A stretch of DNA of 64,000 nucleotides from Acidimicrobiia bacterium (GCA_965203555.1 CBDBCY010000004.1:1696001-1760000); one strand, 5' to 3'. Shown: positions 4,200 through 32,234, counted from the stretch's first letter. Notes: a model not told the origin generated them from the sequence alone. A program made the numbers and translations.

Positions 4200-5087
4200 C
4201 TACCGCATTTTATTGCCGGAATCCCCGGCCCGCACCCCGTCCGGGCTGTTATCCCACGACGATCTCACCTTCGGACGGCCGTGAAGGGTCAAACCTCCCA
4301 ACACCACGACCGCGATACCGACGGTTTGCATCCAGGTCAGGCTCTCTCCCAGCACCAGCCACGCCACCGCGGAGGACACCACCGGCTGGGCGGTGAGGAC
4401 TGTCCCCACCGTGCCCGGACCGGCGCGGGCCACCGAGGCAATCTCCAGCAGAATTCCGGCGGCGCTGGCCGCGGCGGCAATGCCCAGCACCAACCACTTC
4501 GAAAACGGCAGGTCGATGGGTCCTATCCCGGAGATCGGCAGTATCAGCACCGCGGCGGAGGCCCTGAACCACACCCCGATGGTTATCGGCGAAAGGCCCC
4601 CGAGGCGGTCCACCAAAAGCAGATAACCCCCCATGAACACTGCCGAGCCGATTCCGGCGGCAATGCCGATCGGATCGGCCCTCTCCCAGGTCCAGGTCTC
4701 GGTCGCCAGGGAGACACCCAGGAAAACGATGCCCGCCGCGGCCCACGCCCTGAACGGCACGGGGACACTCTGTTTCACCTGCGTCCAGATGAGAACCGTG
4801 GGGACCATGATGAAGGCGAACGTGGCCGAAGGACCCGGGCCGAGACGGGAGAGACTCACGTAATACAGCACCGTGGCGGCGACGACGCACACCCCCAGAA
4901 GTAAAAGTGTTCCCATACGGCCTCGCGGGTGCAGAGCCTTCCTCCACCATCCGATGACCATGAAGATTGCAAAGCCCGCCAGGTTCATCCGGAAGGTCAT
5001 CTCCAAAGTGGTGTGGTGGGAGAACAGGTCGAACACGCACACGGATACCACGGCGAACAGGACAGTGGAGATGGCCGCCATAGTCAT
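4200..5087 (-). CDS. EamA/DMT-family transporter
   Basis: About 295 aa, about 10 hydrophobic segments, C-terminal QPVVSSAVAWLVLGESLT. Confidence 0.8.
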   Translation of the reverse strand: MTMAAISTVLFAVVSVCVFDLFSHHTTLEMTFRMNLAGFAIFMVIGWWRKALHPRGRMGTLLLLGVCVVAATVLYYVSLSRLGPGPSATFAFIMVPTVLIWTQVKQSVPVPFRAWAAAGIVFLGVSLATETWTWERADPIGIAAGIGSAVFMGGYLLLVDRLGGLSPITIGVWFRASAAVLILPISGIGPIDLPFSKWLVLGIAAAASAAGILLEIASVARAGPGTVGTVLTAQPVVSSAVAWLVLGESLTWMQTVGIAVVVLGGLTLHGRPKVRSSWDNSPDGVRAGDSGNKMR

Positions 5088-5248: not shown

Positions 5249-7036
5249 TCAGGTGTTCAGTTCGGCGGTGCGCAGCGGTAAACCCTCGGCGCCGTTGAGC
5301 ATGGCGGTGAGCGGCGCCACCTCCTCTTCCCAGCCGGGACTGGCCAGGATTCCCAGGCGGTCGGCGGTCGGGGTTAGGAAGAAACCCTGCTCCTCGTCGG
5401 CTTCGAAACGGTCGCGATCCACGAACAGCCGCGGCTTGACCACCGCCGGATCGCCTTCCTCCGGGCAGAAGGTCAGGCAGTTTCCACACTCGTTGCACAG
5501 CTCGGCCAGGATGAAGTACTGCCACCGGTCGGTCATCTCGTCCTTGAGTTCCGGGACGGTGGCCAGCCGGATCACCGCATCGTTGGGGCAGACGGTGACG
5601 CAGAAGTTGCAGGCCACGCATCCCCACATCTGCAGCTCCTTGTCCAGCGCCCGGGGCAGTTTTTCGTTGCCCGACAGGTGGTAGAAGCCGGTGTCGTCAC
5701 CCTCGGTCATGGCCATGACGTGCGCCTCCACCGGACCTCGGTGCCCGGTGGCCTGGGCCTCCCGCCACTTGTGATGATGCCAGGACCCCAGATCGGTGGC
5801 CCCGACCTTTCGCATTTCCATCGCCAGGCGGTTGAGCATCGGCGCCAAGCGACCGTAACCGCCCGGTTTGAGCAGATCCGAGCAGATGGTGACCGGCGCC
5901 ACTCCCATCCCCAGCGTGTCGGTGAGGTTGTCCCTGCTGACGCCGGCCGAGAAGCTCACCTGGACGTCGCCGCCGTGGCCCGCCAGGTTGAAAACCCCCG
6001 GTAGGGCGCAGATCAACTCGTCCAGCAAGGTCGAGGTGATGACGTGCAGCGGCGGTCCTGACAGGTACATGGGATCGTCGGGCATCCACCCCTTGTCGTT
6101 GCCCACCACCAGGGTGTTGCTCAGCTTGATCCCGAACTTCCTCCCGTGCCGGCGGGCGAATTCCCGCAGTCCCTCGATCAACTCCAAGCCCTGATCGAAC
6201 TGCAGGTCGTCCACGAAAGCCTGCGGCAACAGGGGAACGTGGTCGTAGCCGAGCGTCTCGTGGAGGATCTCCTGGACCCGGGCGATGCCCAGCAGAGTGG
6301 GATTGAGTTTCACGATCACATCGCACTCGTGACGGGTCATCAGGTGCTTGGTGATGGCGTCGATCTCGTGCGGGGGGCACCCGTGGAAGGTGGAGAGCGT
6401 CACCGTGTCGGCGATCCGGGACGGGAAGTCGAGGTCCCGAAGATGGGCGAACGGCTCGGGTATCTGAGGACGGAAGGAGTCGATCCGGTCCTTGGCGTTC
6501 TTCATCTCCACGATGAAACTGGAGACCTTTTCGGTGGAAATCCCCGCCAGGTCGTAGCCCACCGACATGTCGAAAACGTAAGACCCCGGATCGGGACCCA
6601 TAATCTCGGACACCGGCGCCCAGTTGCTCAGGATCCGGATCATCATCCAAGCCTTCACGTATTCGATCAGGGACTCCTCCACCCGCAGTTCCTGGCTCCA
6701 TTCGATGTTGTACCCGATGGTCTGCATATCGATGCAGGGCCGGCCGATCTCCAGGCGATCGAGGACCTGTACCGTCTTCAATTCGAACAGCCGCGATCCT
6801 CCCAGCCAGGAGAGCACGATGTTCTGGGCCATCTGGCTGTGCGGGCCCGCCGCCGGGCCGATGGGAGTGGCGCAGGGGCGTCCGAGGAAGGAAAAGCTCA
6901 GGTCCAGATCGGTTGGCCTTTTCCAGATCCTGGCCCTTAGAAGATCGAATATCCGCTGCCGGGACTCCCATTCGGAAGCCACCCTCCCCAGCAACAGATC
7001 CAACGGATAGGGAGTCAATGGATCGGCGCCGGACAT
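5249..7036 (-). CDS. ygfK: YgfK-like oxidoreductase, short form (flavin barrel-type N domain plus 2x[4Fe-4S])
   Basis: PIGPAAGPHSQMAQNIV, ELKTVQVLD, RPCID, YNIEWSQEL, TLSTFHGCPP, KLNPTLLG, KLSNT, CSDLLKPGGY; C-terminal CVACNFCVTVCPN and CNECGNCLTFCP. No GxGxxG Rossmann motif seen. Confidence 0.75.
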   Translation of the reverse strand: MSGADPLTPYPLDLLLGRVASEWESRQRIFDLLRARIWKRPTDLDLSFSFLGRPCATPIGPAAGPHSQMAQNIVLSWLGGSRLFELKTVQVLDRLEIGRPCIDMQTIGYNIEWSQELRVEESLIEYVKAWMMIRILSNWAPVSEIMGPDPGSYVFDMSVGYDLAGISTEKVSSFIVEMKNAKDRIDSFRPQIPEPFAHLRDLDFPSRIADTVTLSTFHGCPPHEIDAITKHLMTRHECDVIVKLNPTLLGIARVQEILHETLGYDHVPLLPQAFVDDLQFDQGLELIEGLREFARRHGRKFGIKLSNTLVVGNDKGWMPDDPMYLSGPPLHVITSTLLDELICALPGVFNLAGHGGDVQVSFSAGVSRDNLTDTLGMGVAPVTICSDLLKPGGYGRLAPMLNRLAMEMRKVGATDLGSWHHHKWREAQATGHRGPVEAHVMAMTEGDDTGFYHLSGNEKLPRALDKELQMWGCVACNFCVTVCPNDAVIRLATVPELKDEMTDRWQYFILAELCNECGNCLTFCPEEGDPAVVKPRLFVDRDRFEADEEQGFFLTPTADRLGILASPGWEEEVAPLTAMLNGAEGLPLRTAELNT

Positions 7037-7061
7037 GTCTACAACTTCCTTCCTTTACATC

Positions 7062-7107
7062 TCACAGGCGGGCATGGAGACGGGTCACAGGCGGGCATGG
7101 AGACGGG
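7062..7107. repeat. Perfect 23-bp tandem direct repeat
   Basis: TCACAGGCGGGCATGGAGACGGG at 7062-7084 and 7085-7107; duplicates the 3' end of the ssnA-like gene including its stop. Confidence 0.95.
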
Positions 7108-8101
7108 CCGCCTGTTCGGCGGCCTTCGCCCGCACCTCATCGGGGTCGACCCGCAGGGCCCGACCATCTTCCAACACCACCTCGCCGTCAACCTCCACGC
7201 GCAGAGGCCGGACACCCGGGGTGAACGCCAAGTGCCAGGGACCCATGGGATCGTATGACCAGACCACCCGATCCTCCCTCGCTTCGGGGAACAGTTCCCA
7301 GCCGGCCTCCAGCCATGACCACGCCGTCTCCGGCGAGGCCGTGACATCGTCCTCCCGCATCCGCAGGTAGGCGGCCCGGAAAGCCCCGATCATGTCCCCC
7401 CCGATCCCGTCCGTTCCCAGCGCCACAGGGTTGGGGAACCTGGCGGGGCGAGCATAACCCACCCCGTTGTTCATATTGGATTCGGGATTGTGCAGAATGG
7501 TCCCCTCCAACTCCCGGTCGAGATGGACACCGTGCGCCAGCAACCAGTCTGCCTGCGATCTGGGCTGCAGACGGCGCCCCGCCTCGGGGTCCTCCACTCC
7601 CTCCGCCACGTGGATGTGCACTCCCATCCCCAGATCCTCGGCCAGCCCGCACAACTCGTCCAGGGTTTGGTCGGACAGGGTGAAACAGGCATGGGCGCCC
7701 ACCCATCCCCTCCCTCCCTCCGACAGGAACCGGCGGTTCTCCTCCAGGCCCCGGCGGGCCCCGTCGGGCCCGTGGCGGTCGGTGACCTCGTAGGCGCAGG
7801 CCACCCTCACCCCCACCTCGGCGCAGGCGTCGGCGATCAGGGTGAGAGACCCCTCGATCGCAGAAGGGGAGGCGTGGTGGTCCACGATGGCGGTGGTACC
7901 CCGCTCCAATGCCTCCAGGGCGCCCAGCTTGGCCGACCAGTAGACCATCTCGTCATCCAGGGCGACATCCAGCCGCCACCAGACCTGTTCCAGTATCTCT
8001 CCAAAGCTGCGTGGGGTCCGGGGCGGAGCGGGCATGCCCCGTGCGAGGGCGGAGTAGAGATGATGATGAGCGCAGACCAGCCCGGGGGTTTCCCGGCCCA
8101 T
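7085..8101 (-). CDS. ssnA: SsnA-like amidohydrolase
   Basis: PGLVCAHHHLYSALARG, WWRLDVALD, GTTAIVDHHASP, GAHACFTL, HIHVAE, HNPESNMNNGVG, LGTDG. ATG at 8101 lies just after the upstream stop. Confidence 0.8.
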   Translation of the reverse strand: MGRETPGLVCAHHHLYSALARGMPAPPRTPRSFGEILEQVWWRLDVALDDEMVYWSAKLGALEALERGTTAIVDHHASPSAIEGSLTLIADACAEVGVRVACAYEVTDRHGPDGARRGLEENRRFLSEGGRGWVGAHACFTLSDQTLDELCGLAEDLGMGVHIHVAEGVEDPEAGRRLQPRSQADWLLAHGVHLDRELEGTILHNPESNMNNGVGYARPARFPNPVALGTDGIGGDMIGAFRAAYLRMREDDVTASPETAWSWLEAGWELFPEAREDRVVWSYDPMGPWHLAFTPGVRPLRVEVDGEVVLEDGRALRVDPDEVRAKAAEQAARLHARL

Positions 8102-8102
8102 G

Positions 8103-10694
8103 TCAGCGCCTTCGTCCAAGGGGATGATATTTGTTGAAAGGCAACCGGGTCCGCCAGACCCCGTCCACTTGGTGAAGGGCCGCGGCCACCGCCCCGGCGG
8201 TCGGCACCAGACCAATCTCCCCCACCCCTTTGATCCCGTAGGGTGAATCGGGCTGAGGCTCCTCCACCAGGATCACCTCCACCTCAGGCATGTCCTTGGC
8301 GCGAATGATTCCGAGACTGCGAAGCGTCATGTTGGTGGGCCGACTGTCGGAATCGCACGGGAAGTCTTCAGTCAGGGCATACCCCAGCCCCATGTGCACG
8401 GAGCCCTCGATCTGCCCCTCGCACAGCACCGGATTGACGGCCTTACCCACGTCATGAGCGGCCACCACCTTCTCCACTCTCCCAGTCCTGGGATCGGCGA
8501 TCACCAACTGGCTGGCGTAGCCAAAAGCGGAATGGATGACGGGATTCTCCAGTCCCTCCTTCAGGCTGTTGGTCCAGTCCACCACCCAGACTCCGTGATA
8601 ATCCACCCCCGGCTCGCACCCGCCTTCCAGGGCCTTGCGGCAGGCGTCGGCCACCGAACCTGCCACCATCAGCGTGCCCCGGGACCCGGTGGTCTGCCCG
8701 GCGCCCAATTCTCTGGATGTATCCACCAGGACCTCGATCCGATCCGGGTCGATACCCAACTCCTCCACCGCCACCTGCAGGGCCACGGTGTGCACGCCCT
8801 GGCCCATCTCCGTCCAGCAGTGCCGCACCTCCACCGTCCCGTCGTGCCGGAAGCGCACCACCGACCGGGAAACTTCCCGGAAGCCGTTGCCCAGGCCGGA
8901 GTTCTTCAACCCCAGCCCCACCCCAACGGCTTTGCCCTCCGCGATCGCCCGATCGTAATGAGGCTTCACCGCTTCCAAGCACCGACGGGCACCCCGCGAC
9001 CCCTCGTCCATGATCTGTCCCGGTCCCCATATCGAGCCGGGCTCCACCACGTTGCGAGCCCGCATCTCCCAGCCGCTGATTCCCACCTTCTCGGCCAGGC
9101 GGTCTATCACTCCCTCCATGGCGAACTGGGCCTGGTTCGCCCCGAAACCTCGGAAGGCGCCGCACACCGAATTGTTGGTGCGAACCGCCACCGCCTCCAC
9201 GTCTATGGCGTCCATCACGTACGGACCGCTGGCATGGCCCGCCGCCCGTTCCAGTACCTTCATCCCCACCGAGGCGTACGGCCCCGAGTCTCCCAGCATT
9301 CGCGCCTTCAAAGCGGTGAGTTTGCCGTCGGCGTCGCAACCGGCCCACAATTCCATGCGGATGGGATGCCGTTTTGGGTGGATGTGCAGGGACTGCTCCC
9401 GGGTGAGAGTGCACTTCACCGACCTTCCCAGCAAGTGGGCCGCCAATGCGGTTTGGGCCTGGTTGGCCATGTCCTCCTTGCCCCCGAAGGCGCCGCCGTT
9501 GGAGACCAACTCCACCGTGACGCGGGAGGGGTCCATCCCCAGCACCGAGGCGATCTGGTTGCGATCGTCCCACACCCCCTGACCTCCCGAGTACACGTGC
9601 AGGGCACCGTTGGGGAAGGGCACCGCCACTGTCGATTCCGGTTCCAGGAAGGCGTGCTCCACTCGCTGGGTCCGGAACACCTCGTGCACGGTGTGGGCCG
9701 ACTCGGCCAGCGCCCGGTCCACATCTCCCCGTTTGTAGACGGAGCGGGACAGTAGGTTCCCGTCCAATCCCCACACCGCGTCCTCCGAAGCAAGGGCCTG
9801 CTCAGGATCGCTGACGGGAGGAAGAACCCCGTATTCGACGTGGATCAGATCGGCGGCCTCGCGGGCGGTCTGCACGTCGTCGGCAACTACCATGGCCAGG
9901 ACGTCTCCCGAGTACGAGGTACGCCCGCCCACCGGGATGAAAACCGGCCAATCCTTGTGGATCAGGCCCACTCGCAGTTCACCGGGGACATCGGCGGCGG
10001 TTATCACCTTCACCACCCCCGGATAATGATCGGCGGCCAACGTCTCGATCGCCAACACGTCAGCCCGGGAGTGATCGGTGAGCCGCAGCGCGGCATGCAG
10101 CATCATCGGTGAAGCCAAGTCGTCGATGTAGGGGCGGTCGCCCAGAGACAACTCCAGCGCCTCGTATTTGGCGCCGTTCTTACCGACCCCTCCGGGCCGG
10201 GCGACGGTGGGAATCGGTTCCCCCGACGCCAGCAACTCGATCGCCTCCACGATCTTGGTGTAACCGGTGCAACGGCACAGGTGGGCGCCCAGTCGCCCGT
10301 TGATAGTCCTCCGATTGAGGGCCGGGCCCTTCTGGTCGATGAGCGCCTTGGCCCTTATGACAATGCCGGGAGTGCAGAAACCGCACTGCAGTGCCCCAGT
10401 GGCTGCGAACCCGCGGGCCAGGCGGTCCCGTTCCACGGGATCCAACCCCTCAAGCGTCACGACCTCACCTCCCTTGACCCGGGTGAGCGGCATCTGGCAA
10501 CTCACGATCGCCTTTCCGTTCACCAACACGGTGCAGCAACCACACTGACCGGAGGGAGCGCATCCGTCCTTGGGCGAGATCAACCCCAACTCCTCCCGCA
10601 GCGCGGCCAGCAGGTGGGGATGATCGGCCCGCACCGACACCTCCTCGCCGTTGACCCGGAAAGAGACGGTGGGACGGGCCTGCATCAAGGTCAT
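8103..10694 (-). CDS. Molybdenum hydroxylase with fused 2x[2Fe-2S] and Mo-binding domains (selenium-dependent xanthine dehydrogenase-like)
   Basis: GCAPSGQCGCC, QCGFCTPG, HLCRCTGY, GGAFGGK, AFRGFG, EMGQG, TTGSR, KGVGE; 863 aa; no FAD domain. Confidence 0.88.
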   Translation of the reverse strand: MTLMQARPTVSFRVNGEEVSVRADHPHLLAALREELGLISPKDGCAPSGQCGCCTVLVNGKAIVSCQMPLTRVKGGEVVTLEGLDPVERDRLARGFAATGALQCGFCTPGIVIRAKALIDQKGPALNRRTINGRLGAHLCRCTGYTKIVEAIELLASGEPIPTVARPGGVGKNGAKYEALELSLGDRPYIDDLASPMMLHAALRLTDHSRADVLAIETLAADHYPGVVKVITAADVPGELRVGLIHKDWPVFIPVGGRTSYSGDVLAMVVADDVQTAREAADLIHVEYGVLPPVSDPEQALASEDAVWGLDGNLLSRSVYKRGDVDRALAESAHTVHEVFRTQRVEHAFLEPESTVAVPFPNGALHVYSGGQGVWDDRNQIASVLGMDPSRVTVELVSNGGAFGGKEDMANQAQTALAAHLLGRSVKCTLTREQSLHIHPKRHPIRMELWAGCDADGKLTALKARMLGDSGPYASVGMKVLERAAGHASGPYVMDAIDVEAVAVRTNNSVCGAFRGFGANQAQFAMEGVIDRLAEKVGISGWEMRARNVVEPGSIWGPGQIMDEGSRGARRCLEAVKPHYDRAIAEGKAVGVGLGLKNSGLGNGFREVSRSVVRFRHDGTVEVRHCWTEMGQGVHTVALQVAVEELGIDPDRIEVLVDTSRELGAGQTTGSRGTLMVAGSVADACRKALEGGCEPGVDYHGVWVVDWTNSLKEGLENPVIHSAFGYASQLVIADPRTGRVEKVVAAHDVGKAVNPVLCEGQIEGSVHMGLGYALTEDFPCDSDSRPTNMTLRSLGIIRAKDMPEVEVILVEEPQPDSPYGIKGVGEIGLVPTAGAVAAALHQVDGVWRTRLPFNKYHPLGRRR

Positions 10695-10698
10695 CGTG

Positions 10699-11646
10699 CT
10701 ACTCCGCTTCGGGCGGGAGGATCGCGCCTCGGGTCTCGCTGATCAGTCGGTAGTGCTTCGGAACCCGGTACAGGTCGAAATTGAATACGTTGTCCTTGTA
10801 GAAGCGGCAGAAGTCCAGGTCGATCCTGGCTACCGCCAACTCGTCGCCGTCGGTGATGGTCTGGCACACGATCTGACCCGACGGAGCGATGATCACGCTC
10901 TGGGCGATGTTCTCCACCCCCTCCTCTATCCCTGCCTTGGCGACGCCCACCACCCAGCATCCGTTCTGATAGGCGCCGGCCTGCATAACCACATGACTGT
11001 GGAAGTTCTGCAACGCGTTCTGCTGGGGATCGGTGGCGTAAAAATAGGGGGTGTTGTATCCGATCAGGATCAATTCGACGCCCTGCAATCCCATCACCCG
11101 ATAGGTCTCCGACCACCGCCGGTCATTGCAGATAGCCATGCCCACGATCCCCCCGAACGCCCTCCAAACCCCGAAACCGTCCGGACCGGACTCGAAAAAG
11201 TATCTCTCGGCGTGCTGGAAGGGTCGCCACTCCTGGTGTTCCGCATGTCCGGGGATGTGGATCTTGCGAAATTTTGCGACCTCGGCGCCATCCCTCTCCA
11301 CCAGTATCTGGGTGTTGTAGCGATGAGTCACACCCTCATCATCGGTGAGCACCTCGGCATAACCCAAACAGAATCCGATTCCCAGACGGGCCGCCTCGTC
11401 GAACAGTGGCTGGGTGGCTTCCGAAGGCATTTTCTTCTCGAAGAAGGAGAGCATTTCTTCTTCGTCTTCTATAAACCAGCGTGGAAAGAAGGTAGTCAAC
11501 GCCAATTCGGGGTAGACCAGCAACTCGACTTTTCGGTCAGCGGCCTCATACAGCAACTCGACCATTCGCTTCACTACGTCTTCCCGGCAGGCGTCTCGGG
11601 CCGTAGGACCCATCTGGCCCATACCCACCGTCAAGTTGCGACTCAT
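10699..11646 (-). CDS. N-carbamoyl-D-amino-acid hydrolase (nitrilase superfamily)
   Basis: E-K-C triad in YPELALTTFFPRW, FRKIHIPGH, ICNDRRWSE; GYNTP. Confidence 0.85.
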   Translation of the reverse strand: MSRNLTVGMGQMGPTARDACREDVVKRMVELLYEAADRKVELLVYPELALTTFFPRWFIEDEEEMLSFFEKKMPSEATQPLFDEAARLGIGFCLGYAEVLTDDEGVTHRYNTQILVERDGAEVAKFRKIHIPGHAEHQEWRPFQHAERYFFESGPDGFGVWRAFGGIVGMAICNDRRWSETYRVMGLQGVELILIGYNTPYFYATDPQQNALQNFHSHVVMQAGAYQNGCWVVGVAKAGIEEGVENIAQSVIIAPSGQIVCQTITDGDELAVARIDLDFCRFYKDNVFNFDLYRVPKHYRLISETRGAILPPEAE

Positions 11647-11654
11647 GGAGAGTT

Positions 11655-11684
11655 AATGTACCATTGCGTTTTACAATTTGTCAA
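11655..11684 (-). promoter_or_regulatory. Housekeeping-sigma promoter of the carbamoylase-xdh-ssnA-ygfK operon
   Basis: Minus strand TTGACA-18 nt-TACATT (preceded by TGG), 8 nt before the ATG at 11646. Confidence 0.65.
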
Positions 11685-11715
11685 ATAACCAAGAGGGAAG
11701 ACTGCAGCAGGTTTT

Positions 11716-12330
11716 ATGACGATTGGCAGGCCAGTTCAGCAAGGGCGTTGCCGGCTCGAGTTTCTGATTGAGCCGTTCATGGAAGGAAACCCCGGACCAC
11801 ATGTTCTAAGTTCCCTGGAAGTGCTGCGCAACGCCGGTATGGAGGTGGTGCTGGGCCCCTTCGGGAACACCGCGGAGGGGGATGAGGAGACATTGACGTC
11901 GCTGCTTCCCATGATCGTGCAGTCCGCATTCGAGAAAGGGGCCTCCCGCATCCTGCTCAATCTCACCAAACCGGATGCCCGGCGTACCGCAACGCCCGAC
12001 CGAGCCGTGCAGCCGGCACCTTCGGCTCAAGACGAGGCACTGGCCGGCGGTTCGGCGGTGGTCGACCCGATGACCTGGAAGGAAGCCGTGATCGACCCGA
12101 GCCGTCGCGAAGACCTGCATGGCGCAGTGGAACGAATCGTCAACGCGGTGGAAACGCAGATGGGAGGCGCCCTCGGTGAGCTGACGAGAGAGAAAAAACA
12201 GGCGGCCGTGAGAATCTTGGATGAACAGGGCGTCTTCCTCATCCGCAAGTCGGTGGAAACGGTTGCCAAGGCGATGGGGGTGAGCAGGATTACCATCTAC
12301 AACTATCTCAACGCCATCCGAGGCGACTAG
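11716..12330 (+). CDS. Putative transcriptional regulator: thiamine-binding-protein-like N domain plus YheO-type C-terminal HTH
   Basis: N domain EFLIEPF...VLGPFGNTAEG; C domain KKQAAVRILDEQGVFLIRKSVETVAKAMGVSRITIYNYL. Confidence 0.75.
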   Translation: MTIGRPVQQGRCRLEFLIEPFMEGNPGPHVLSSLEVLRNAGMEVVLGPFGNTAEGDEETLTSLLPMIVQSAFEKGASRILLNLTKPDARRTATPDRAVQPAPSAQDEALAGGSAVVDPMTWKEAVIDPSRREDLHGAVERIVNAVETQMGGALGELTREKKQAAVRILDEQGVFLIRKSVETVAKAMGVSRITIYNYLNAIRGD

Positions 12331-12403
12331 GTCTGATGATGGTGATCTACCTGCCGACCGGTCGTCGAGAAGACCCTTGTCCCATGTCAGGAAGTGAGTC
12401 GGC

Positions 12404-13594
12404 ATGACCTCCGGCGGATCCTCGGAAGGCACAGCGGCAGGCTCTCGGCTGCGCACCCAGTTGCTTTCCTACAGCGTGCCCGTTCTGGCGGTCCTGGGCG
12501 CCTTGGCAATCGGGGCGGTGATGCTGGCGGCGTTGGGGGCCAATCCGTTCACGGGATTCTGGGCGATGGCCAAAGGAGCTTTCGGAAGCGGGGGCGCCCT
12601 GGTGGAGACAGCGCTGAAGTCCACTCCCCTGTTGCTGGTGGGAGTGGGAATCACCATCGCCTTCCGGGCCAATGTGATCAACATCGGGGGAGAGGGTCAG
12701 ATGGTTTCCGGCGCTTTGGCTTCCACCATCGTGGCCTTGGGGATGACCGACGTTCCCGCTTGGACAGCCCTGCCGCTGGCGCTCTTGGCGGGAGTGGCCG
12801 GGGGAGCCGTCTGGGGCGCCATACCCGGCGCCCTGAAGGCTTATTTCGGAGTAAACGAGATACTCAGCACCATCATGCTCAACGTCGTGGCCGTGCAGGC
12901 CATGAACTACCTGCTGAGGGCACCTCTCATCGACCCGATGGAAATAGAGCGGGGCACCCGTATTCCTCAGACCGCCCGATTGCCCGAAAGCACCGACCTG
13001 CCGTTGTTTGTGGAAGGCGGGCGACTTCACATAGGACCGGTCATCGCGGTGCTGGTGGCGGTGCTGGTGTACGTGCTACTGTGGCGGACCACCTCCGGCT
13101 ATCGCATACGAGCGGTAGGACTCTCCGGCGACGCCGCCCGCTATGCGGGTATGTCCGTGGAAAGAAACGTCGTATGGGCACTGACCCTGAGCGGAGCGAT
13201 GTCAGGACTGGCGGGAGCGATCCTGGTGCTGGGTTCCGAAGGACATCGGATGGTGACCGACGGCAGCACCATCGGATTCACCGGCAGCGCCGGGTTCAAC
13301 GGTATCGTGACCGCCCTGTTCGGCGGCCTCCATCCGCTGTGGACGATTCCCTCCTCCTTCCTGTTCGGCGGCCTGCTGGTGGGCGCCATCGCCCTGCAGC
13401 GGGCGGCCCAGGTCCCCACCGCCCTGGTACTGGCGCTCAACGGACTGGTGGTCCTGTTCGTGGTCAGCCTTGATCGATACCGACGCCAGTTGAAAGAGCG
13501 TGAGGAGCGGCGAATCTCTGCGATAGCCACCGCATCACCCGACGACCACGAATCCAACCAGCCCCCCTCCCGGGAGGACGACGACGATGGCTGA
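12404..13594 (+). CDS. Nucleoside/purine ABC transporter permease
   Basis: NIGGEGQ, VNEILSTIMLN, GYRIRAVG, GFNGIVTALFG. Confidence 0.9.
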   Translation: MTSGGSSEGTAAGSRLRTQLLSYSVPVLAVLGALAIGAVMLAALGANPFTGFWAMAKGAFGSGGALVETALKSTPLLLVGVGITIAFRANVINIGGEGQMVSGALASTIVALGMTDVPAWTALPLALLAGVAGGAVWGAIPGALKAYFGVNEILSTIMLNVVAVQAMNYLLRAPLIDPMEIERGTRIPQTARLPESTDLPLFVEGGRLHIGPVIAVLVAVLVYVLLWRTTSGYRIRAVGLSGDAARYAGMSVERNVVWALTLSGAMSGLAGAILVLGSEGHRMVTDGSTIGFTGSAGFNGIVTALFGGLHPLWTIPSSFLFGGLLVGAIALQRAAQVPTALVLALNGLVVLFVVSLDRYRRQLKEREERRISAIATASPDDHESNQPPSREDDDDG

Positions 13595-14519
13595 CCTGTT
13601 TTCCGGCGTGGTGATCGTAGCCACCCTGTCTTCGGGGATCCGTTTGGCGGTGCCGCTCCTGCTGGCTTCGCTGGGAGAGGCGTTCGGGCAGCGGAGCGGG
13701 GTCCTCAACCTGGGGGTGGACGGCATCATGTTGCTGGGCGCCTTCGGCGGCTACTACACCACTCTAAAAACACAGAGTCCCTGGTTGGGATTGGTGGTGG
13801 GGTTGGCTATCGGGCTGATCCTCGGACTCCTCTCCTCGGTGATCAGCGTCTCTCTTCTGGCGGAGCAGGGCATCAGCGGAATCGGCGTTTACCTGTTCGG
13901 GCTGGGCATGAGCGATCTGCTGTTTCAGAAGCTGGTCGGCACTCCTCTTCCTGTCCCGTCCTTCCAGAAGGCCCCCATCCCCCTGCTGTCGGAGATCCCC
14001 GTGGTGGGAGATCTCTTCTTCAATCACAGCATCCCGATCTACCTGGCGTTTCTGGCCATCCCGGTCTCCACGGTGATTATCAACCGCACCCGGTTCGGGA
14101 TGAACATCCGGGCAGTGGGAGAAAACCCCGAAGCGGCCGACTCGCAGGGCATCAGCGTGACCCGGGTTCGCTACGCGGCGGTCACCATCGGAGGGGTTCT
14201 CGCCGGAGCAGCCGGCGCCGTGCTGGCCATCGGCCTGGGCATCTTCCAGCAGAACCTCACCAACGCCCAGGGCTTCATCGCCATCGCCCTGGTGTACTTC
14301 GGAGCGTGGAGACCGATCGGGGTGATGGCCGGATCGCTGGTTTACGGAATGGTCTCGGCAGTGGTGCTGCTCTTGAAGACCCGGGGGATAATCCCGCTCG
14401 GCGCATCCGATCTGGCCGCCATGATCCCGGCGATTATCACCGTGCTGGCCCTGGTGGTCGCCGCCCGCCGGTTCCGGGCGCCCAGCGCTCTCACCAAGCC
14501 CTTCATCCGGGGGGGATAG
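13587..14519 (+). CDS. Nucleoside/purine ABC transporter permease
   Basis: QRSGVLNLGVDG, IRAVGENPEAA, GFIAIALVYFGAWRP. Confidence 0.9.
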   Translation: MADLFSGVVIVATLSSGIRLAVPLLLASLGEAFGQRSGVLNLGVDGIMLLGAFGGYYTTLKTQSPWLGLVVGLAIGLILGLLSSVISVSLLAEQGISGIGVYLFGLGMSDLLFQKLVGTPLPVPSFQKAPIPLLSEIPVVGDLFFNHSIPIYLAFLAIPVSTVIINRTRFGMNIRAVGENPEAADSQGISVTRVRYAAVTIGGVLAGAAGAVLAIGLGIFQQNLTNAQGFIAIALVYFGAWRPIGVMAGSLVYGMVSAVVLLLKTRGIIPLGASDLAAMIPAIITVLALVVAARRFRAPSALTKPFIRGG

Positions 14520-14575
14520 ATGGATTTTTCATCCGACACACCGTACGAACCCAATCAACCCAAGGAGCTAACCCA

Positions 14576-16591
14576 ATGAATGTTTACAGGAAACCGGGCT
14601 TCGCCCGACTCTTGGCTGTCCTGGCGGTTCTCGCTCTGGTGGCCACCGCCTGCGGAGACGACGCCGAGGAGACGGTGACGACCCAGGCGCCCACTTCCGA
14701 GACCACCGCTGTCCCGGAGGCCCCCGATGCTGAGGAAGAAGCGCCTGAGGCCGAAGAGATGGAAGACGAGATGGAAGAAATGCCGATGGAGCCGTTGCGG
14801 ATTGCGGTGGTTGCGCCGAGCGCTTCCAATGACTTGGCATTCACCCAGAGCATCGTGGACGCGGTGAACGTGATCGCCGCGGAGCATCCGGGCACCGAGG
14901 TGGCTATCACCGACGGGACGTTCATCGTGGAGGACGCCGCATCGGCGCTGCGCGGTTACGCCGAAGAGGGCTATGACCTGGTCATCGCCCACGGTTCCCA
15001 GTACGGTGGATCCCTCCAGGAGATCGCCGGGGACTTCCCCGACACCGCCTTCGCCTGGGGCACCTCCGCCGACACCCTCGGCCAGCCCAACGTCTCCGCC
15101 TACACCGCCGCCTCCGACCAGGGCGGCTACGTGATGGGCGTGATGGCCGCCGCCCTGTCCGACTCCAGCGTGATCGGCGTGGTCGGTCCCATCGAGGTGG
15201 GCGACGCCAAACTCTATGTGGACGGGTTCCACAACGGAGCGATCGCCGCCGGCGCGGGCACCGTCAACATCAACTACATCGGCTCGTTCAGCGACGTGGC
15301 TTTGGCTTCCGAAGCAGCCCAGGCCCACATCGCCTCCGGTGCTGACGTGTTGACCGGATCGGCGCAGATGGTCGTGGGAGCGGTGGGAGTCGCTCAGGCC
15401 AACGGCGCCCTGTGGTTCGGCACCCAGGCCAACCAGACCGCCCTGTCGCCCGACCTGGTAGTGGCGTCCCAGGTGTACAAGTGGGAAGTCGTGCTGCGAC
15501 AGATCGTGGCTGACATCTCCGCCGGTTCATTGGGCGGCAAGGCATACGAGATCAACCTGGCCAACGGCGGACTGGTGATCGAGTACAACGACGGCTTCGA
15601 CCTCCCCGCCGACGTAAGAGCCAACGCCGACAACACCATCGCCGGAATCATCAGCGGAACCGTCAACACCATGGAAGCCATGATGATGCCGATGGAGCCG
15701 TTGCGGATTGCGGTGGTTGCGCCGAGCGCTTCCAATGACTTGGCATTCACGCAGAGCATCGTGGACGCGGTGAACGTGATCGCCGCGGAGCATCCGGGCA
15801 CCGAGGTGGCTATCACCGACGGGACGTTCATCGTGGAGGACGCCGCATCGGCGCTGCGCGGTTACGCCGAAGAGGGCTATGACCTGGTCATCGCCCACGG
15901 TTCCCAGTACGGTGGATCCCTCCAGGAGATCGCCGGGGACTTCCCCGACACCGCCTTCGCCTGGGGCACCTCCGCCGACACCCTCGGCCAGCCCAACGTC
16001 TCCGCCTACACCGCCGCCTCCGACCAGGGCGGCTACGTGATGGGCGTGGCGGCCGCATTGATGTCCCAGTCGGGAGTGATCGGCGTGGTCGGTCCCATCG
16101 AGGTGGGCGACGCCAAACTGTACGTGGACGGCTTCCGCAACGGCGCGGTTGCTACCCGTGGCGACGTGACCGTGAATATCAACTACATCGGCTCGTTCAG
16201 TGACGTGGCTTTGGCTTCCGAAGCAGCCCAGGCCCACATCGCGGCCGGTGCCGATGTCTTGACCGGCTCCGCGCAGATGGTGGTCGGAGCGGTGGGAGTC
16301 GCCCAGGCCAACGGCGTCTTCTGGTTCGGCACCCAGGCCAACCAGACCGCCCTGTCGCCCGACCTGGTAGTGGCGTCCCAGGTGTACAAGTGGGAGGTCG
16401 TGCTGCGACAGATCATCGCCGACATCTCCGCCGGTTCATTGGGCGGCAAGGCATACGAGATCAATCTCGCCAACGGCGGGCTGGTCTTGGAGCCCAACCC
16501 TGCATTCGATATACCCGGGGCGATGATGGATCAGATGGGAGCCGTGGTTCAGGGAATCATCGACGGCAGCATCGATACCGGCGCCAACTAG
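14576..16591 (+). CDS. BMP-family ABC substrate-binding lipoprotein with two tandem BMP domains
   Basis: AAGGAG before ATG 14576; lipobox LVATAC; acidic linker; NDLAFTQS...LVIAHGSQY domain occurs twice. Confidence 0.88.
   Translation: MNVYRKPGFARLLAVLAVLALVATACGDDAEETVTTQAPTSETTAVPEAPDAEEEAPEAEEMEDEMEEMPMEPLRIAVVAPSASNDLAFTQSIVDAVNVIAAEHPGTEVAITDGTFIVEDAASALRGYAEEGYDLVIAHGSQYGGSLQEIAGDFPDTAFAWGTSADTLGQPNVSAYTAASDQGGYVMGVMAAALSDSSVIGVVGPIEVGDAKLYVDGFHNGAIAAGAGTVNINYIGSFSDVALASEAAQAHIASGADVLTGSAQMVVGAVGVAQANGALWFGTQANQTALSPDLVVASQVYKWEVVLRQIVADISAGSLGGKAYEINLANGGLVIEYNDGFDLPADVRANADNTIAGIISGTVNTMEAMMMPMEPLRIAVVAPSASNDLAFTQSIVDAVNVIAAEHPGTEVAITDGTFIVEDAASALRGYAEEGYDLVIAHGSQYGGSLQEIAGDFPDTAFAWGTSADTLGQPNVSAYTAASDQGGYVMGVAAALMSQSGVIGVVGPIEVGDAKLYVDGFRNGAVATRGDVTVNINYIGSFSDVALASEAAQAHIAAGADVLTGSAQMVVGAVGVAQANGVFWFGTQANQTALSPDLVVASQVYKWEVVLRQIIADISAGSLGGKAYEINLANGGLVLEPNPAFDIPGAMMDQMGAVVQGIIDGSIDTGAN
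14780..16570 (+). repeat. Intragenic tandem duplication, period about 906 bp
   Basis: 14780-15142 and 15686-16048 differ at one synonymous base by my reading; the rest alternates identical and divergent patches. Confidence 0.92.
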
Positions 16592-16626
16592 CCCGAATAG
16601 GAAAGGACCAACAGGGTGACGAAACG

Positions 16627-18147
16627 ATGACGCAACTCCTGGAGATGCGAGGAATCGTGAAGCGCTTCCCCGGCGTGCTGGCCAATGATCGAGTCGACTT
16701 CGATCTGCGCGCCGGGGAGGTGCACACCCTGTTGGGAGAAAACGGAGCCGGGAAAAGCACCCTCATGAACATCCTTTACGGGCTCTACCAGCCCGACGAA
16801 GGAGAACTTCTGATTGAAGGATCGCCAACCCGGATCACCAGCCCCATCGACGCCATCAACCACGGGATCGGCATGGTCCACCAGCACTTCATGCTGGTGC
16901 CCACCCTGACCGTGACGGAGAATGTGGCGATGGGCGCCGTCACCTCGAAGAGAGGACGCATGAATCTGCGGAGGGTTGCCGACCGCATCCGAGAGTTGTC
17001 GGAATCTCACGGGTTGGCCGTCGATCCCGACGCCTATATCTGGCAACTGTCAGTGGGGGAACGCCAGAGAGTGGAGATCATCAGGGCTCTGTACCGTGAC
17101 GTCAAACTCCTGGTGCTGGACGAACCCACCGCGGTTCTGACCCCCGGCGAAGTGGAACACCTGTTCAAGATCCTCCGGCAGATGGCCCAGGCCGGACGGG
17201 GCCTGGTGTTCATTTCCCACAAACTCCATGAGGTCCTGGCTCTGAGTGACCGTATCACCGTGCTTCGTCACGGACGCGTAATGGGCGAAGTCAACGCACA
17301 GGACGCCACCCGGGAGATGTTGGCCTCGATGATGGTCGGTAGACCGGTGCGCCTGGCGCCGGACAAACCGCCGTTGGATCCGGGTCGGGCCCGCCTGACT
17401 ATTCGCAACCTCAGTGTCATGGGTGACCGCGGCCTTCCGGCTCTGGAGGATCTGAACCTCTCGGTACGAGAAGGGGAGATCCTGGGGATCGCCGGGGTCT
17501 CCGGCAACGGCCAGCGGGAGTTGGCCGAGACCATCGCCGGACTGCGGAAGCCGACTGCGGGCGCCATCGAAGTGGACGGCGCCGATATCACCGGCCACAA
17601 ACCCTCGTCCGTGAGAGGAGCAGGATTGGCGTATGTTCCCGAGGAACGCCAGCGGGACGGCGCCATCGGAGCATTCAGTGTCTCCGAGAACCTGATTCTG
17701 GTGAACCACAACCAGGCACCCATGAGTCGCAGAGGTTTCCTGCGCAACGGCGAGATCCGCCAACGGAGCCGGCAACTGGTCGACGAGTTCTCGGTGGCCA
17801 CACCCGGACTGGACGTTCCGGCATCCAATCTTTCGGGAGGCAATCTGCAAAAGCTGATCCTCGCTCGCGAGCTTTCCGGGTCGCCTTCGGTGCTGGTGGC
17901 TTCCCAACCCACCCGGGGAGTGGACATCGGGGCGGCCGAGTACATCCATGATCGACTGATCGAACAGCGAGGGTCCAAGTCGGTCGCCATCCTGCTCATC
18001 TCCGAAGACCTGGACGAGATACTGGGCTTGGCCGACCGCATCGCCGTCATCTACGAGGGCCGCATAGTCGGAGAGGTCGGGGCCGATCGCGCCGACCGGC
18101 AGCAGATCGGCCTGATGATGGCTGGAGTTTCCAACTCAGACAACTGA
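16627..18147 (+). CDS. ABC transporter ATP-binding protein (two-domain, nucleoside/sugar type)
   Basis: GENGAGKST, LSVGERQR, LDEPT; second half LSGGNLQK, SQPTRGVD. Confidence 0.93.
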   Translation: MTQLLEMRGIVKRFPGVLANDRVDFDLRAGEVHTLLGENGAGKSTLMNILYGLYQPDEGELLIEGSPTRITSPIDAINHGIGMVHQHFMLVPTLTVTENVAMGAVTSKRGRMNLRRVADRIRELSESHGLAVDPDAYIWQLSVGERQRVEIIRALYRDVKLLVLDEPTAVLTPGEVEHLFKILRQMAQAGRGLVFISHKLHEVLALSDRITVLRHGRVMGEVNAQDATREMLASMMVGRPVRLAPDKPPLDPGRARLTIRNLSVMGDRGLPALEDLNLSVREGEILGIAGVSGNGQRELAETIAGLRKPTAGAIEVDGADITGHKPSSVRGAGLAYVPEERQRDGAIGAFSVSENLILVNHNQAPMSRRGFLRNGEIRQRSRQLVDEFSVATPGLDVPASNLSGGNLQKLILARELSGSPSVLVASQPTRGVDIGAAEYIHDRLIEQRGSKSVAILLISEDLDEILGLADRIAVIYEGRIVGEVGADRADRQQIGLMMAGVSNSDN

Positions 18148-18192
18148 CCTGCAAGGTCCAAGCATGACTATCAGCACCACAGGAGGCATTCG

Positions 18193-19035
18193 ATGTCCAA
18201 TCAGGTAACCGCCGCCCTGATCCAATCGGAGTGGACCGGCGACAAGGAGTCGATGGTCGACAAGAACATCGACTACGCTCGGGAGGCGGCAGAGCAGGGA
18301 GCGCAGGTGCTCTGCTTCCAGGAGATTTTCAACAGCCCTTACTTCTGCAACGTCCAGGACAGCGACAATTACTCCTACGCCGAGCCGATCCCGGACGGGC
18401 CGACCATTCGACGCATGATCTCATTGGCCGAGGAGACCGGGATGGTCCTGGTGGTCCCCATCTACGAGGTGGTCGACGAGGGAACGTTCTTCAACACCGC
18501 GGCGGTGATCGATGCCGACGGCACATTCCTGGGCAGATACCGCAAGACCCACATCCCGCAGGTGAAAGGGTTCTGGGAAAAGTTCTACTTCCGGCCCGGC
18601 AACCTGGGCTACCCGGTCTTCGACACGGCGGTGGGAAGGATCGGGGTCTACATCTGCTACGACCGCCACTTTCCCGAAGGGTGGAGAGTGCTGGGCCTCA
18701 AAGGCGCCCGCATCGTTTTCAACCCTTCCGCCACCACCCGGGGGCACTCGATGCACTTGTGGCAACTGGAGCAGACCGCCGCGGCGGTTGCAAACGAATA
18801 TTTCGTCGGCGCCATCAATCGGGTTGGACCGGAGGGTTACACCGACACCGACTACTACGGATCATCCTACTTCGCCAACCCCCGGGGGGAGATAGTGGGC
18901 GAAACAGCCTCGGACACCGAGGATGAGGTAGTGGTTCGCCAACTCGATCTGGGCCTGGTGGAGGAGGTACGGCGCTACTGGGCCTTCTACCGTGACCGTC
19001 GGCCCGAGGTCTACGAAGAGGTGGCGGCCGTCTAG
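18193..19035 (+). CDS. Beta-ureidopropionase-like nitrilase-family hydrolase
   Basis: CFQEIF, YRKTHIPQVKGFWEKFYFRPGN, YICYDRHFPEG; AGGAGG upstream. Confidence 0.88.
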   Translation: MSNQVTAALIQSEWTGDKESMVDKNIDYAREAAEQGAQVLCFQEIFNSPYFCNVQDSDNYSYAEPIPDGPTIRRMISLAEETGMVLVVPIYEVVDEGTFFNTAAVIDADGTFLGRYRKTHIPQVKGFWEKFYFRPGNLGYPVFDTAVGRIGVYICYDRHFPEGWRVLGLKGARIVFNPSATTRGHSMHLWQLEQTAAAVANEYFVGAINRVGPEGYTDTDYYGSSYFANPRGEIVGETASDTEDEVVVRQLDLGLVEEVRRYWAFYRDRRPEVYEEVAAV

Positions 19036-31261: not shown

Positions 31262-31277
31262 AGAGAAAGGAAATACC

Positions 31278-32231: not shown

Positions 32232-32234
32232 AAC

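Follow-up and report, generated by a model that had tools for sequence, protein, structure and literature searches.

The reductive route of purine degradation, solved in 2025 in gut anaerobes, is said in a commentary to be restricted to obligate or facultative anaerobes (Percudani commentary, PMC12990295). As described in two preprints (10.1101/2025.05.19.654654, 10.1101/2025.04.24.650524), urate is reduced to 2,8-dioxopurine by XdhD-YgfM or XdhAC, after which YgfK carries out a ring reduction and SsnA opens the ring to ureidomethyl-hydantoin; HyuA then yields 2,3-diureidopropionate, both ureido groups are taken off by YgeW (with YqeA) or UacY and by YgeY, and YgeX converts the resulting 2,3-diaminopropionate to pyruvate. 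The ureido intermediates have been proposed to be R (D) configured (PMC12990295). In Clostridioides difficile, according to the first preprint, an Xdh without a flavin subunit, a reductase that carries only flavin mononucleotide (FMN) and no NAD(P)H domain, and a D-specific hydrolase replacing YgeW are used (10.1101/2025.05.19.654654). Here, we analyzed a 64,000-nucleotide (nt) stretch of an Acidimicrobiia genome, hereafter the window (G000:C4:1696001-1760000; source genome of 3.4 Mb with an estimated completeness of 95.2%), in which a molybdenum (Mo) hydroxylase (Xdh), a short SsnA homologue, and a short YgfK homologue are encoded together with two carbamoylases of the CN-hydrolase (nitrilase) family, designated CNH_A and CNH_B.

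We consider it reasonably probable that this locus is an Acidimicrobiia hydrolytic variant of reductive (2,8-dioxopurine) purine degradation residing in an aerobe, in which D-2,3-diureidopropionate would lose its 2-ureido group by the action of CNH_A and its 3-ureido group by that of CNH_B. The pathway core is already known, and what the window adds is likely the use of two CN-hydrolase carbamoylases in place of YgeW-YqeA and YgeY, together with the aerobic host. The words "nitrilase," "carbamoylase," "ureidopropionase," and "Acidimicrobi" are absent from the main texts of both preprints, and such neighborhoods may be shown by Li et al. (10.1101/2025.05.19.654654), where Actinomycetota nodes are colored in a network figure of SsnA. 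Likewise, none of the matches listed in a literature search paired a term for the 2,8-dioxopurine pathway with "Acidimicrobiia" or mentioned these carbamoylases.

In the window, five minus-strand genes follow one another in the order CNH_A, Xdh, SsnA homologue, short YgfK, and EamA transporter, with gaps of 4, 1, 48, and 161 nt, and the part from CNH_A to the short YgfK (5249 to 11646) is a single tightly coupled operon (Table 1). A preliminary description made from the DNA sequence had proposed an operon headed by a D-carbamoylase (N-carbamoyl-D-amino-acid hydrolase) and a divergent ATP-binding cassette (ABC) transporter operon ending in a beta-ureidopropionase, with ygeW, ygeY, ygeX, and hyuA all missing from the locus. 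This arrangement was recovered gene by gene at the same positions, with CNH_A and CNH_B at the two ends named, and none of the four genes was detected in the locus.

The homology of Xdh, short SsnA, and short YgfK to that core of the 2,8-dioxopurine pathway which reduces and opens the ring, also proposed earlier, is supported at the level of the protein sequences. By domain content, Xdh is a Mo hydroxylase with its own iron-sulfur (Fe-S) clusters, as are XdhD and XdhAC; it scored 813.2 bits against TIGR03311 ("selenium-dependent xanthine dehydrogenase"), just below the cutoff of 830.45, and 196.6 bits against the Escherichia coli XdhD-type model TIGR03313, while no gene for a flavin adenine dinucleotide (FAD) subunit was found in the operon. 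Sequence identity between the short YgfK and E. coli YgfK is 39% over residues 2 to 405 of the latter and 38% over its residues 898 to 978 (BLASTP), and the short protein matches positions 2 to 397 of the 1,012 positions of TIGR03315 (430 bits; cutoff, 835 bits). Residues ∼406 to 897 of the E. coli protein, the FAD/NADPH part of ∼490 residues, have no counterpart, and this missing part has been modeled as the FAD/NAD(P)H input site (Li et al., 10.1101/2025.05.19.654654). Only two 4Fe-4S motifs of the short YgfK are seen by Pfam; its AlphaFold model (16 sequences; pLDDT, 75.5) has as best PDB folds dihydropyrimidine dehydrogenase (DPD) and dihydroorotate dehydrogenases (DHODH), with a probability of 1.00 and modest TM-scores. 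The short SsnA starts with an ATG 2 nt past the Xdh stop and carries an HxH motif at residues 11 to 14. It is 34% identical to residues 56 to 438 of E. coli SsnA, with ∼55 N-terminal residues missing, and accordingly aligns with NF005540 from profile position 58 onward (256 bits; cutoff, 444). A complex prediction for Xdh residues 1 to 850 with short YgfK residues 450 to 595 (score, 0.02; mark, 0.32) gave no evidence either way on docking.

The preliminary assignment of the two CN hydrolases to a D-carbamoylase and a beta-ureidopropionase type agrees with their nearest solved relatives. CNH_A can be aligned over its whole length with solved D-carbamoylases (6LEI; E value, 2e-113; residues 1 to 306; phmmer) and keeps the stretches YPELAL, RKIH, and ICNDRRW, identical to those of the solved enzymes, which we take to be the Glu-Lys-Cys catalytic stretches with the Arg pair after the Cys. 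For D-carbamoylase, Cys172, Asn173, and Arg176 have been named (PMC13011192). With full length and catalytic stretches both present, CNH_A is a D-carbamoylase homologue predicted to hydrolyze N-carbamoyl-D-alpha-amino acids. The nearest solved relatives of CNH_B are the N-carbamoylputrescine amidase 5H8I (E value, 3e-57) and the beta-ureidopropionases 2VHH (E value, 4e-54) and 6FTQ; with 262.3 bits against the curated aguB equivalog TIGR03381 (cutoff, 410.25), it is not a member of that family.

One genome per species was scanned, which gave 566 stretches encoding a YgfK relative, and the best 80 loci were kept; since contig ends cut many of them, the linkage counts are lower bounds. The loci were divided into near (n = 11; short YgfK at least 85% identical) and far (n = 69) loci, and identity to the query of at least 55% for SsnA, 60% for Xdh, 50% for CNH_A, and 60% for CNH_B was required. 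Two clusters of open reading frames (ORFs), "unk9" and "unk39," were taken as antisense ORFs over real genes in GC-rich DNA and left out of the counts. Nearly all of these loci came from Acidimicrobiia metagenome-assembled genomes of sponges, corals, sediments, and soils, and public DNA runs with the window stretch were sponge, coral, and marine metagenomes. Among database proteins, 7,976 of the 7,996 candidates scored as relatives of the short YgfK reached an E value of 1e-10 or lower (lengths of 327 to 1,042 residues, so that full-length YgfK is included); the best 120 listed were all 576 to 638 residues long and mostly without a functional name, and the names present were "putative selenate reductase" or "4Fe-4S dicluster protein" from Acidimicrobiia.

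SsnA was linked in 69 of the 80 loci, Xdh in 58, and CNH_A in 44, and homologues of the HTH_22 regulator adjoined the core in 29 (ORF clustering). In those 45 far loci whose upstream sequence extends over 4.8 kb or more, the respective numbers were 40, 38, and 30. The gene order recurs across 80 species-level genomes and is thus not a chance arrangement. CNH_B was linked in 17 loci, an AmaB-type M20 hydrolase in 10, diaminopropionate ammonia-lyase in 13, carbamate kinase in 6, and a D-hydantoinase (own and E. coli queries) in none. A purine context was also apparent: a CDA-type deaminase, with 2G84 as the best PDB match followed by the Bacillus guanine deaminase 1WKQ, lay beside the core in 20 of the 80 loci, and the FAD/Fe-S subunit of a second, classical XDH did so in 18.

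The linkage of the D-carbamoylase was also examined at the level of whole genomes, in a sample of 101 Acidimicrobiia genomes, each at least 85% complete and the window genome included. YgfK matches were found in 18 genomes, 14 with the short form and 4 with a match of ∼40% identity. In these four (G053, G065, G077, and G093), the match lies in open frames of 1,116 to 1,260 residues adjoining an SsnA orthologue, suggesting full-length YgfK, and the D-carbamoylase is absent from three of them. SsnA orthologues occurred in 31 genomes, 13 of which had no YgfK match. The D-carbamoylase was present in 27 genomes, all within the 31 SsnA-positive ones and including all 14 short-YgfK genomes, and in none of the 70 SsnA-negative genomes. 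Thus, the conservation of carbamoylase linkage to the core that the preliminary description had named as a check holds, both in the 44 loci with CNH_A and in the 27 of 27 D-carbamoylase genomes that also have SsnA.

These counts bear on a classical D-hydantoinase plus D-carbamoylase system for hydantoin or D-amino-acid utilization, in which Xdh, YgfK, and SsnA would serve an unrelated oxidation. Contexts outside the class speak for it: on the proteobacterial plasmids inspected, the D-carbamoylase is accompanied by dihydropyrimidinase, by hydantoin-racemase-like genes, or by M20 hydrolases and has no Xdh, SsnA, or YgfK near it, and among 251 Actinomycetota genomes the D-carbamoylase was found in 11, 10 of them Acidimicrobiia, the sole non-Acidimicrobiia carrier having no SsnA in its genome. 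For the window, we regard this explanation as very improbable indeed, considering that CNH_A lies 4 nt from Xdh in one operon, that the D-carbamoylase occurs with SsnA in every Acidimicrobiia carrier, and that neither a hydantoinase nor a racemase is linked in any of the 80 loci. Given the varied contexts on the six plasmids and the SsnA-less eleventh genome, a purine link cannot be extended to the D-carbamoylase family as a whole.

CNH_B-like genes were found in 34 of the 101 genomes. Within the order of the window genome, all 12 D-carbamoylase-negative genomes with a CNH_B match had a single copy, within ∼3 kb of a dihydropyrimidinase in 11, while a second CNH_B-like copy was present in all 9 D-carbamoylase-positive genomes. 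Except in the window genome, the extra copy lay beside or within ∼3 kb of the D-carbamoylase. In a tree of 49 hand-chosen CNH_B-like rows (quick IQ-TREE search, strand set by similarity, omitting the possibly frameshifted paralogue of the window genome and the partial genes of G015 and G090), the 17 D-carbamoylase-linked copies, the window's included, were split by a branch from the 32 others, which were dihydropyrimidinase-adjacent copies, single copies, and copies of other families (Shimodaira-Hasegawa-like approximate likelihood ratio test [SH-aLRT], 99). The separate clade points to a dedicated paralogue rather than a pyrimidine-pathway enzyme. Both CN hydrolases are conserved partners specific to the core.

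The alternative that two systems with no relation to each other share the locus, CNH_B and the ABC transporter forming an ordinary nucleoside and pyrimidine (PydC) module that adjoins the Xdh operon by chance, draws on the 6.5-kb ABC operon that keeps CNH_B and CNH_A apart in the window and on the many SsnA-less Acidimicrobiia in which CNH_B-like genes adjoin a dihydropyrimidinase. It appears highly improbable to us, since the clade of CNH_B is made only of D-carbamoylase-linked copies (17 of 17), the extra copy follows the D-carbamoylase within the order (9 of 9 positive and 0 of 12 negative genomes), and in L022 and 14 far loci no transporter intervenes, CNH_B being immediately next to CNH_A or to the regulator. 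Moreover, the window genome has another CNH_B paralogue beside its dihydropyrimidinase gene, at C4:1306528-1307357 (52% identical), which matches in two reading frames, suggesting a frameshift. This paralogue follows the second D-hydantoinase of the genome and adjoins an F420-type LLM oxidoreductase (G000:C4:1305110-1308921; loci L098 and L099); the segment may encode a pyrimidine-type pathway with an F420 reductase.

The AmaB-type M20 protein passes the hydantoinase/carbamoylase amidase model (395.8 bits; cutoff, 204) and was found in 19 of the 101 genomes, 18 of them D-carbamoylase-positive; in 14 of these 18 its gene and that of the D-carbamoylase are neighbors, in 1 they are within 2 kb of each other, and in 3 the M20 gene lies elsewhere. 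Taken with the 9 genomes that have an extra CNH_B, every D-carbamoylase carrier in the sample thus has a second carbamoylase. Among the 33 far loci with CNH_A, CNH_B was linked in 14, the M20 gene in 10, both in none, and neither in 9. The carbamoylases had been expected to exclude ygeY and ygeW. In the window genome this stood, as neither gene is present; as a rule across loci it did not, given the carbamate kinase and ornithine carbamoyltransferase (OTC)-like genes beside CNH_A in 4 far loci, and the gene with which CNH_B alternates proved to be the AmaB-type M20 carbamoylase and not one of YgeY type.

Downstream of the carbamoylases, the linked lyase passes the diaminopropionate ammonia-lyase model NF006058 (337 bits; cutoff, 276), and in all 13 loci that have it, all of them far, it stands directly after the short YgfK or between SsnA and YgfK. 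This embedded position in 13 of the 69 far loci fits a route from 2,3-diureidopropionate to diaminopropionate. In the 101-genome sample, the lyase family was above cutoff in 6 genomes, all SsnA-positive. EamA directly follows the short YgfK in 11 of 11 near loci and in 0 of 69 far loci, and it stands in the window clade where other lineages have the ammonia-lyase; it is a possible exporter or importer of the pathway. An independent case comes from another phylum: on the Cupriavidus oxalaticus plasmid NZ_CP038636 (L141; 9303 to 12951), a diaminopropionate ammonia-lyase homologue (41% identical to E. coli YgeX), an AmaB-type M20 hydrolase (59% identical to the Acidimicrobiia M20), and a D-carbamoylase (59% identical to CNH_A) are consecutive and adjoin a polar amino-acid-type ABC transporter and an RpiR regulator. 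This trio looks like the expected diureidopropionate-to-pyruvate module, here stand-alone for ureido-diaminopropionate compounds. The five other proteobacterial plasmid contexts differed, with genes for dihydropyrimidinase, racemase-like proteins, or M20 hydrolases, or for a BMP transporter together with an adenine-deaminase-like protein.

The remainder of the window genome was searched for the missing functions. YgeW (best, 21 bits; cutoff, 500) and YgeY (best, 118.5 bits; cutoff, 321.5), whose presence elsewhere in the genome would have counted against the preliminary description, were not found, nor were carbamate kinase (best, 26 bits; cutoff, 358) and the 2-oxo-4-hydroxy-4-carboxy-5-ureidoimidazoline (OHCU) decarboxylase of the oxidative urate route. 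Of the further genes that the description had suggested seeking, a hydantoinase and selD were detected, and diaminopropionate ammonia-lyase, yqeC, and a true yqeB were not. Two D-hydantoinases above cutoff are encoded ∼400 kb from the locus, at C4:1290200 and C4:1305110, along with eight further full-length paralogues. SelD (G000:C4:2892744-2893658) scored 379.8 bits, above its cutoff, and its one in-frame TGA indicates that it probably contains selenocysteine. YqeC had no match in the genome, and YqeB had only weak XdhC-like matches (27 to 32% identity, with one short segment at 39%), so that the set SelD, YqeB, and YqeC, which defines the selenium-dependent Mo hydroxylase trait, is incomplete; we make no claim on selenium dependence of the window Xdh. 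YqeB and YqeC are present in 5 to 6 related loci.

Judging from its genes, the host is an oxygen-respiring bacterium: a heme-copper oxidase COX1 is encoded (515 bits), and a homogentisate pathway, which needs oxygen, is in line with an aerobic host. The genes of the latter, for fumarylacetoacetase-like, metallo-beta-lactamase-fold, FAD monooxygenase, and homogentisate 1,2-dioxygenase proteins, lie together in the window (30008 to 35101, plus strand). The genome has at least eight other Mo hydroxylases. One of its loci (L100, G000:C4:1879856-1886180) is a classical XDH operon, in which two CDA-type guanine-deaminase-like genes accompany those for a Mo subunit and a fused FAD/Fe-S subunit. This locus also has a divergent gene for a 487-amino-acid (aa) CysK-like pyridoxal phosphate enzyme, with 47% identical homologues beside CNH_B (L075) and downstream of a short YgfK (L035). 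This enzyme was considered as a substitute ammonia-lyase; being core-linked in only 2 to 3 of the 80 loci, it was kept as a lead only.

From gene content we infer every substrate, the electron donor, the direction in which Xdh works, how the second ring is opened, and what becomes of diaminopropionate. In the resulting scheme, the BMP-type ABC transporter would import a purine base or nucleoside, and the FAD-less Fe-S/Mo Xdh would convert urate to 2,8-dioxopurine. The short YgfK, with its FMN barrel and two 4Fe-4S clusters, would then carry out the ring reduction, and the short SsnA would open the pyrimidine ring to give ureidomethyl-hydantoin. As no hydantoin-opening enzyme is linked, a D-hydantoinase encoded elsewhere or the short SsnA itself would have to convert the hydantoin to D-2,3-diureidopropionate. 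Finally, CNH_A would take the 2-ureido and CNH_B the 3-ureido group, yielding 2,3-diaminopropionate, two NH3, and two CO2.

Several findings weigh against this scheme. SsnA, YgfK, and Xdh each fall below their NCBIfam cutoffs, and no electron-input (pyridine-nucleotide) module was seen for Xdh or the short YgfK. The Glu606 insertion, linked by Li et al. (10.1101/2025.05.19.654654) to XdhD regiochemistry, is absent from the window Xdh; this residue was tried as a marker and is uninformative on the Xdh product, since it sits in an insertion that the window enzyme lacks, and the regiochemistry is therefore not readable from the sequence. Not one of the 80 loci has a hydantoinase gene within 10 kb, which leaves the step between SsnA and the carbamoylases with no assigned enzyme, and no substitute cyclic amidase was found among the variable genes of related loci. 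D-hydantoinases above cutoff occur in 40 of the 101 genomes, including all 14 with the short YgfK, and also in whole families without YgfK, so that their presence is not specific. The ammonia-lyase is missing from 13 of the 14 short-YgfK genomes, and in the window genome YgeX had no match with two protein queries and the family model. Of the 4 far loci with carbamate kinase and OTC-like genes, 3 have CNH_B too. Xdh, SsnA, and YgfK were not found near the D-carbamoylase on the 6 proteobacterial plasmids inspected, where the contexts are of hydantoin type. The host is aerobic, while the known pathway is described for anaerobes. In addition, the genomes compared are kin, whose counts overstate independence, and for this reason no statistics were applied.

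Some of these findings would equally suit the same enzyme logic acting on a different substrate or starting at a point other than the conversion of urate to 2,8-dioxopurine. The compound processed could be a different oxopurine, an aminopurine product, or some related bicyclic N-heterocycle acquired from the sponge or coral host, with Xdh possibly working oxidatively. The unreadable Xdh regiochemistry with its missing Glu606 insertion, the lack of a reductant-input module, the aerobic host, the core proteins below family cutoffs, and the lack of an ammonia-lyase in most carriers are all compatible with this, as is a genome that, with more than eight Mo hydroxylases and 10 hydantoinase-family paralogues, degrades many heterocycles. 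Set against it, a guanine-deaminase-type gene and a classical XDH adjoin the core in 18 to 20 of the 80 loci, the ammonia-lyase of 13 loci is consistent with the three carbons of the product that the known route yields, and the short YgfK shares 39% identity with the FMN domain by which E. coli YgfK binds its substrate. On balance, we judge a different substrate to be unlikely, though worth keeping in mind.

A further idea, which we put forward as rather improbable, is that electrons pass in a closed circuit between the FAD-less Xdh and a YgfK that has no NAD(P)H domain, by which the "reductive" pathway would become a net hydration without external reductant in an oxygen-respiring bacterium. 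Hydroxylation of a less oxidized purine at the Mo site would deliver electrons via the Fe-S chain to the YgfK flavin and thereby drive the ring reduction; for example, hypoxanthine plus water and dihydro-2,8-dioxopurine have the same elemental formula. A short SsnA that opened both rings would explain why no hydantoinase is linked. Two of the four nitrogens would be gained by plain hydrolysis, and diaminopropionate would be passed to the EamA transporter with no lyase involved.

The remaining features of the locus are compiled in Table 1. The window has a G+C content of 61 to 65%. The promoter match (pattern match only) consists of TTGACA, an 18-nt spacer, and TACATT preceded by TG, agrees at 10 of 12 positions, and ends ∼8 nt before the CNH_A ATG. 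The BMP protein has a signal/lipobox sequence and an internal repeat, with both Bmp domains in one reading frame; 300-nt blocks of its gene are 100% identical (14780 to 15079 and 15686 to 15985), and the long form is also found in near relatives (median, 671 aa). The tandem could be a real two-domain receptor or an assembly collapsed or expanded at this point. Beyond EamA and the HD-domain gene that comes after it lie the transposase genes DDE_Tnp_1 (1488 to 2396, plus strand) and DDE_3 with HTH (2415 to 3527, minus strand), both missing from related loci (ORF clustering). Variable genes of the related loci include GNAT, tRNA_edit, P450, MFS, MOSC, YczE, malic enzyme, alpha/beta hydrolase, and cytochrome c genes, and one 455-aa protein that matched no family. 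In L092, L095, and L097 (∼5.0 to 5.3 kb; no CNH_A), the regulator and Xdh are closely preceded by a gene for a 107-aa Cytochrome_CBB3-domain protein in the opposite orientation, and this small cytochrome c might be an electron partner. No public RNA run is listed for the stretch; a coral metatranscriptome, from the sample of a DNA run that contains the stretch, gave short contigs only (183 to 324 nt among the matches listed) and covered 21 of 30 bins, which does not show transcription, as such libraries can contain DNA.

Table 1. Genes and promoter match of the carbamoylase-Xdh locus (window positions)
Feature	Position	Strand	Evidence
EamA/DMT transporter, 161 nt downstream of short YgfK	4200..5087	-	EamA domains; weak match to RhtA and 2A78
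Short YgfK, 595 aa, DPD/DHODH-like FMN barrel plus two 4Fe-4S motifs	5249..7036	-	TIGR03315, 430 bits
Short SsnA-like amidohydrolase, 338 aa	7085..8101	-	NF005540, 256 bits
Xdh, fused 2x[2Fe-2S] and molybdopterin hydroxylase	8103..10694	-	Fer2, Fer2_2, hammerhead (Ald_Xan_dh_C), MoCoBD_1/2
CNH_A, N-carbamoyl-D-amino-acid hydrolase homologue (D-carbamoylase), first gene of operon	10699..11646	-	CN_hydrolase, 159.9 bits
Sigma-70-like promoter match for CNH_A operon, in 69-nt divergent intergenic region	11655..11684	-	Pattern match only
Divergent regulator, YheO-type HTH_22	11716..12330	+	HTH_22, 74.4 bits
ABC permease 1	12404..13594	+	BPD_transp_2, 141.6 bits
ABC permease 2	13587..14519	+	BPD_transp_2, 141.5 bits
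BMP/PnrA-family lipoprotein binding protein, two tandem Bmp domains	14576..16591	+	Bmp, 228 bits in two stretches
ABC ATPase, two ATP-binding domains	16627..18147	+	ABC_tran domains; in-frame ATG at 16627
CNH_B, beta-ureidopropionase/N-carbamoylputrescine-amidase-like CN hydrolase, last gene of ABC operon	18193..19035	+	CN_hydrolase, 214.7 bits

Should the hydrolytic 2,8-dioxopurine variant be the correct reading, the reach of the pathway would extend beyond gut anaerobes, as oxygen-respiring Acidimicrobiia from sponges, corals, sediments, and soils carry its core. The lower pathway would be modular: the partner of the D-carbamoylase would be a dedicated paralogue of beta-ureidopropionase in some carriers and an AmaB-type M20 hydrolase in others, and an ammonia-lyase may or may not be present. 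Moreover, D-carbamoylase, whose physiological role is called still unclear in a 2026 paper (PMC13011192), would gain a concrete candidate substrate.

Compared with the E. coli cluster (xdhD-ygfM, ygfK, ssnA, hyuA, ygeW-yqeA, ygeY, and ygeX), the window likewise has, in one operon, homologues of the Mo hydroxylase, of the FMN and C-terminal 4Fe-4S parts of YgfK, and of SsnA, together with two enzymes capable of decarbamoylation and a linked purine-type transporter. It differs in lacking the YgfM FAD subunit, the FAD/NADPH part of YgfK, and the ∼55 N-terminal residues of SsnA, in having an Xdh of TIGR03311 type rather than XdhD (TIGR03313), and in having no HyuA in the locus, no YgeX in the genome, and an aerobic host. 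With YgeW-YqeA and YgeY replaced by two CN hydrolases, no ATP would be gained from carbamoyl phosphate. The variants of C. difficile and Clostridium sporogenes resemble the window in combining an Xdh free of a flavin subunit and a reductase that has no NAD(P)H domain with a D-specific hydrolase, in the window a predicted one, for one ureido group; the selenium-cofactor genes YqeB and YqeC were not found in the window genome. The parts themselves are different: the reductase is UacX there (PF01180, PydA-like, FMN-only) and a truncated YgfK here, the D-specific hydrolase is UacY (D-aminoacylase-like, amidohydrolase fold) there and a CN-hydrolase D-carbamoylase here, and the second carbamoylase is the M20 protein YgeY there and a CN hydrolase here.

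In the Chloroflexota F420/LLM-type variant, predicted by Li et al. (10.1101/2025.05.19.654654), the partners of SsnA are retained and only the ring reductase is swapped for another enzyme, which resembles the 13 of 31 SsnA-positive Acidimicrobiia without YgfK; the window, in contrast, uses a truncated YgfK and not an LLM enzyme. The industrial hydantoinase process (1ERZ, 1FO6, and 6LEI) provides full-length homologues of CNH_A, and D-hydantoinases are present in the window genome, but the window D-carbamoylase is coupled to Xdh, SsnA, and YgfK instead of a hydantoinase or racemase. Finally, the Pyd pathway (PydA, DPD; PydB, dihydropyrimidinase; PydC, beta-ureidopropionase) follows a similar course of flavin-dependent ring reduction, cyclic-amide opening, and decarbamoylation, the short YgfK folds like DPD, and CNH_B is paralogous to the PydC-like gene adjoining dihydropyrimidinase; unlike that pathway, the window locus adds a Mo hydroxylase and a second, putatively alpha-specific carbamoylase, and its CNH_B belongs to a clade of its own.

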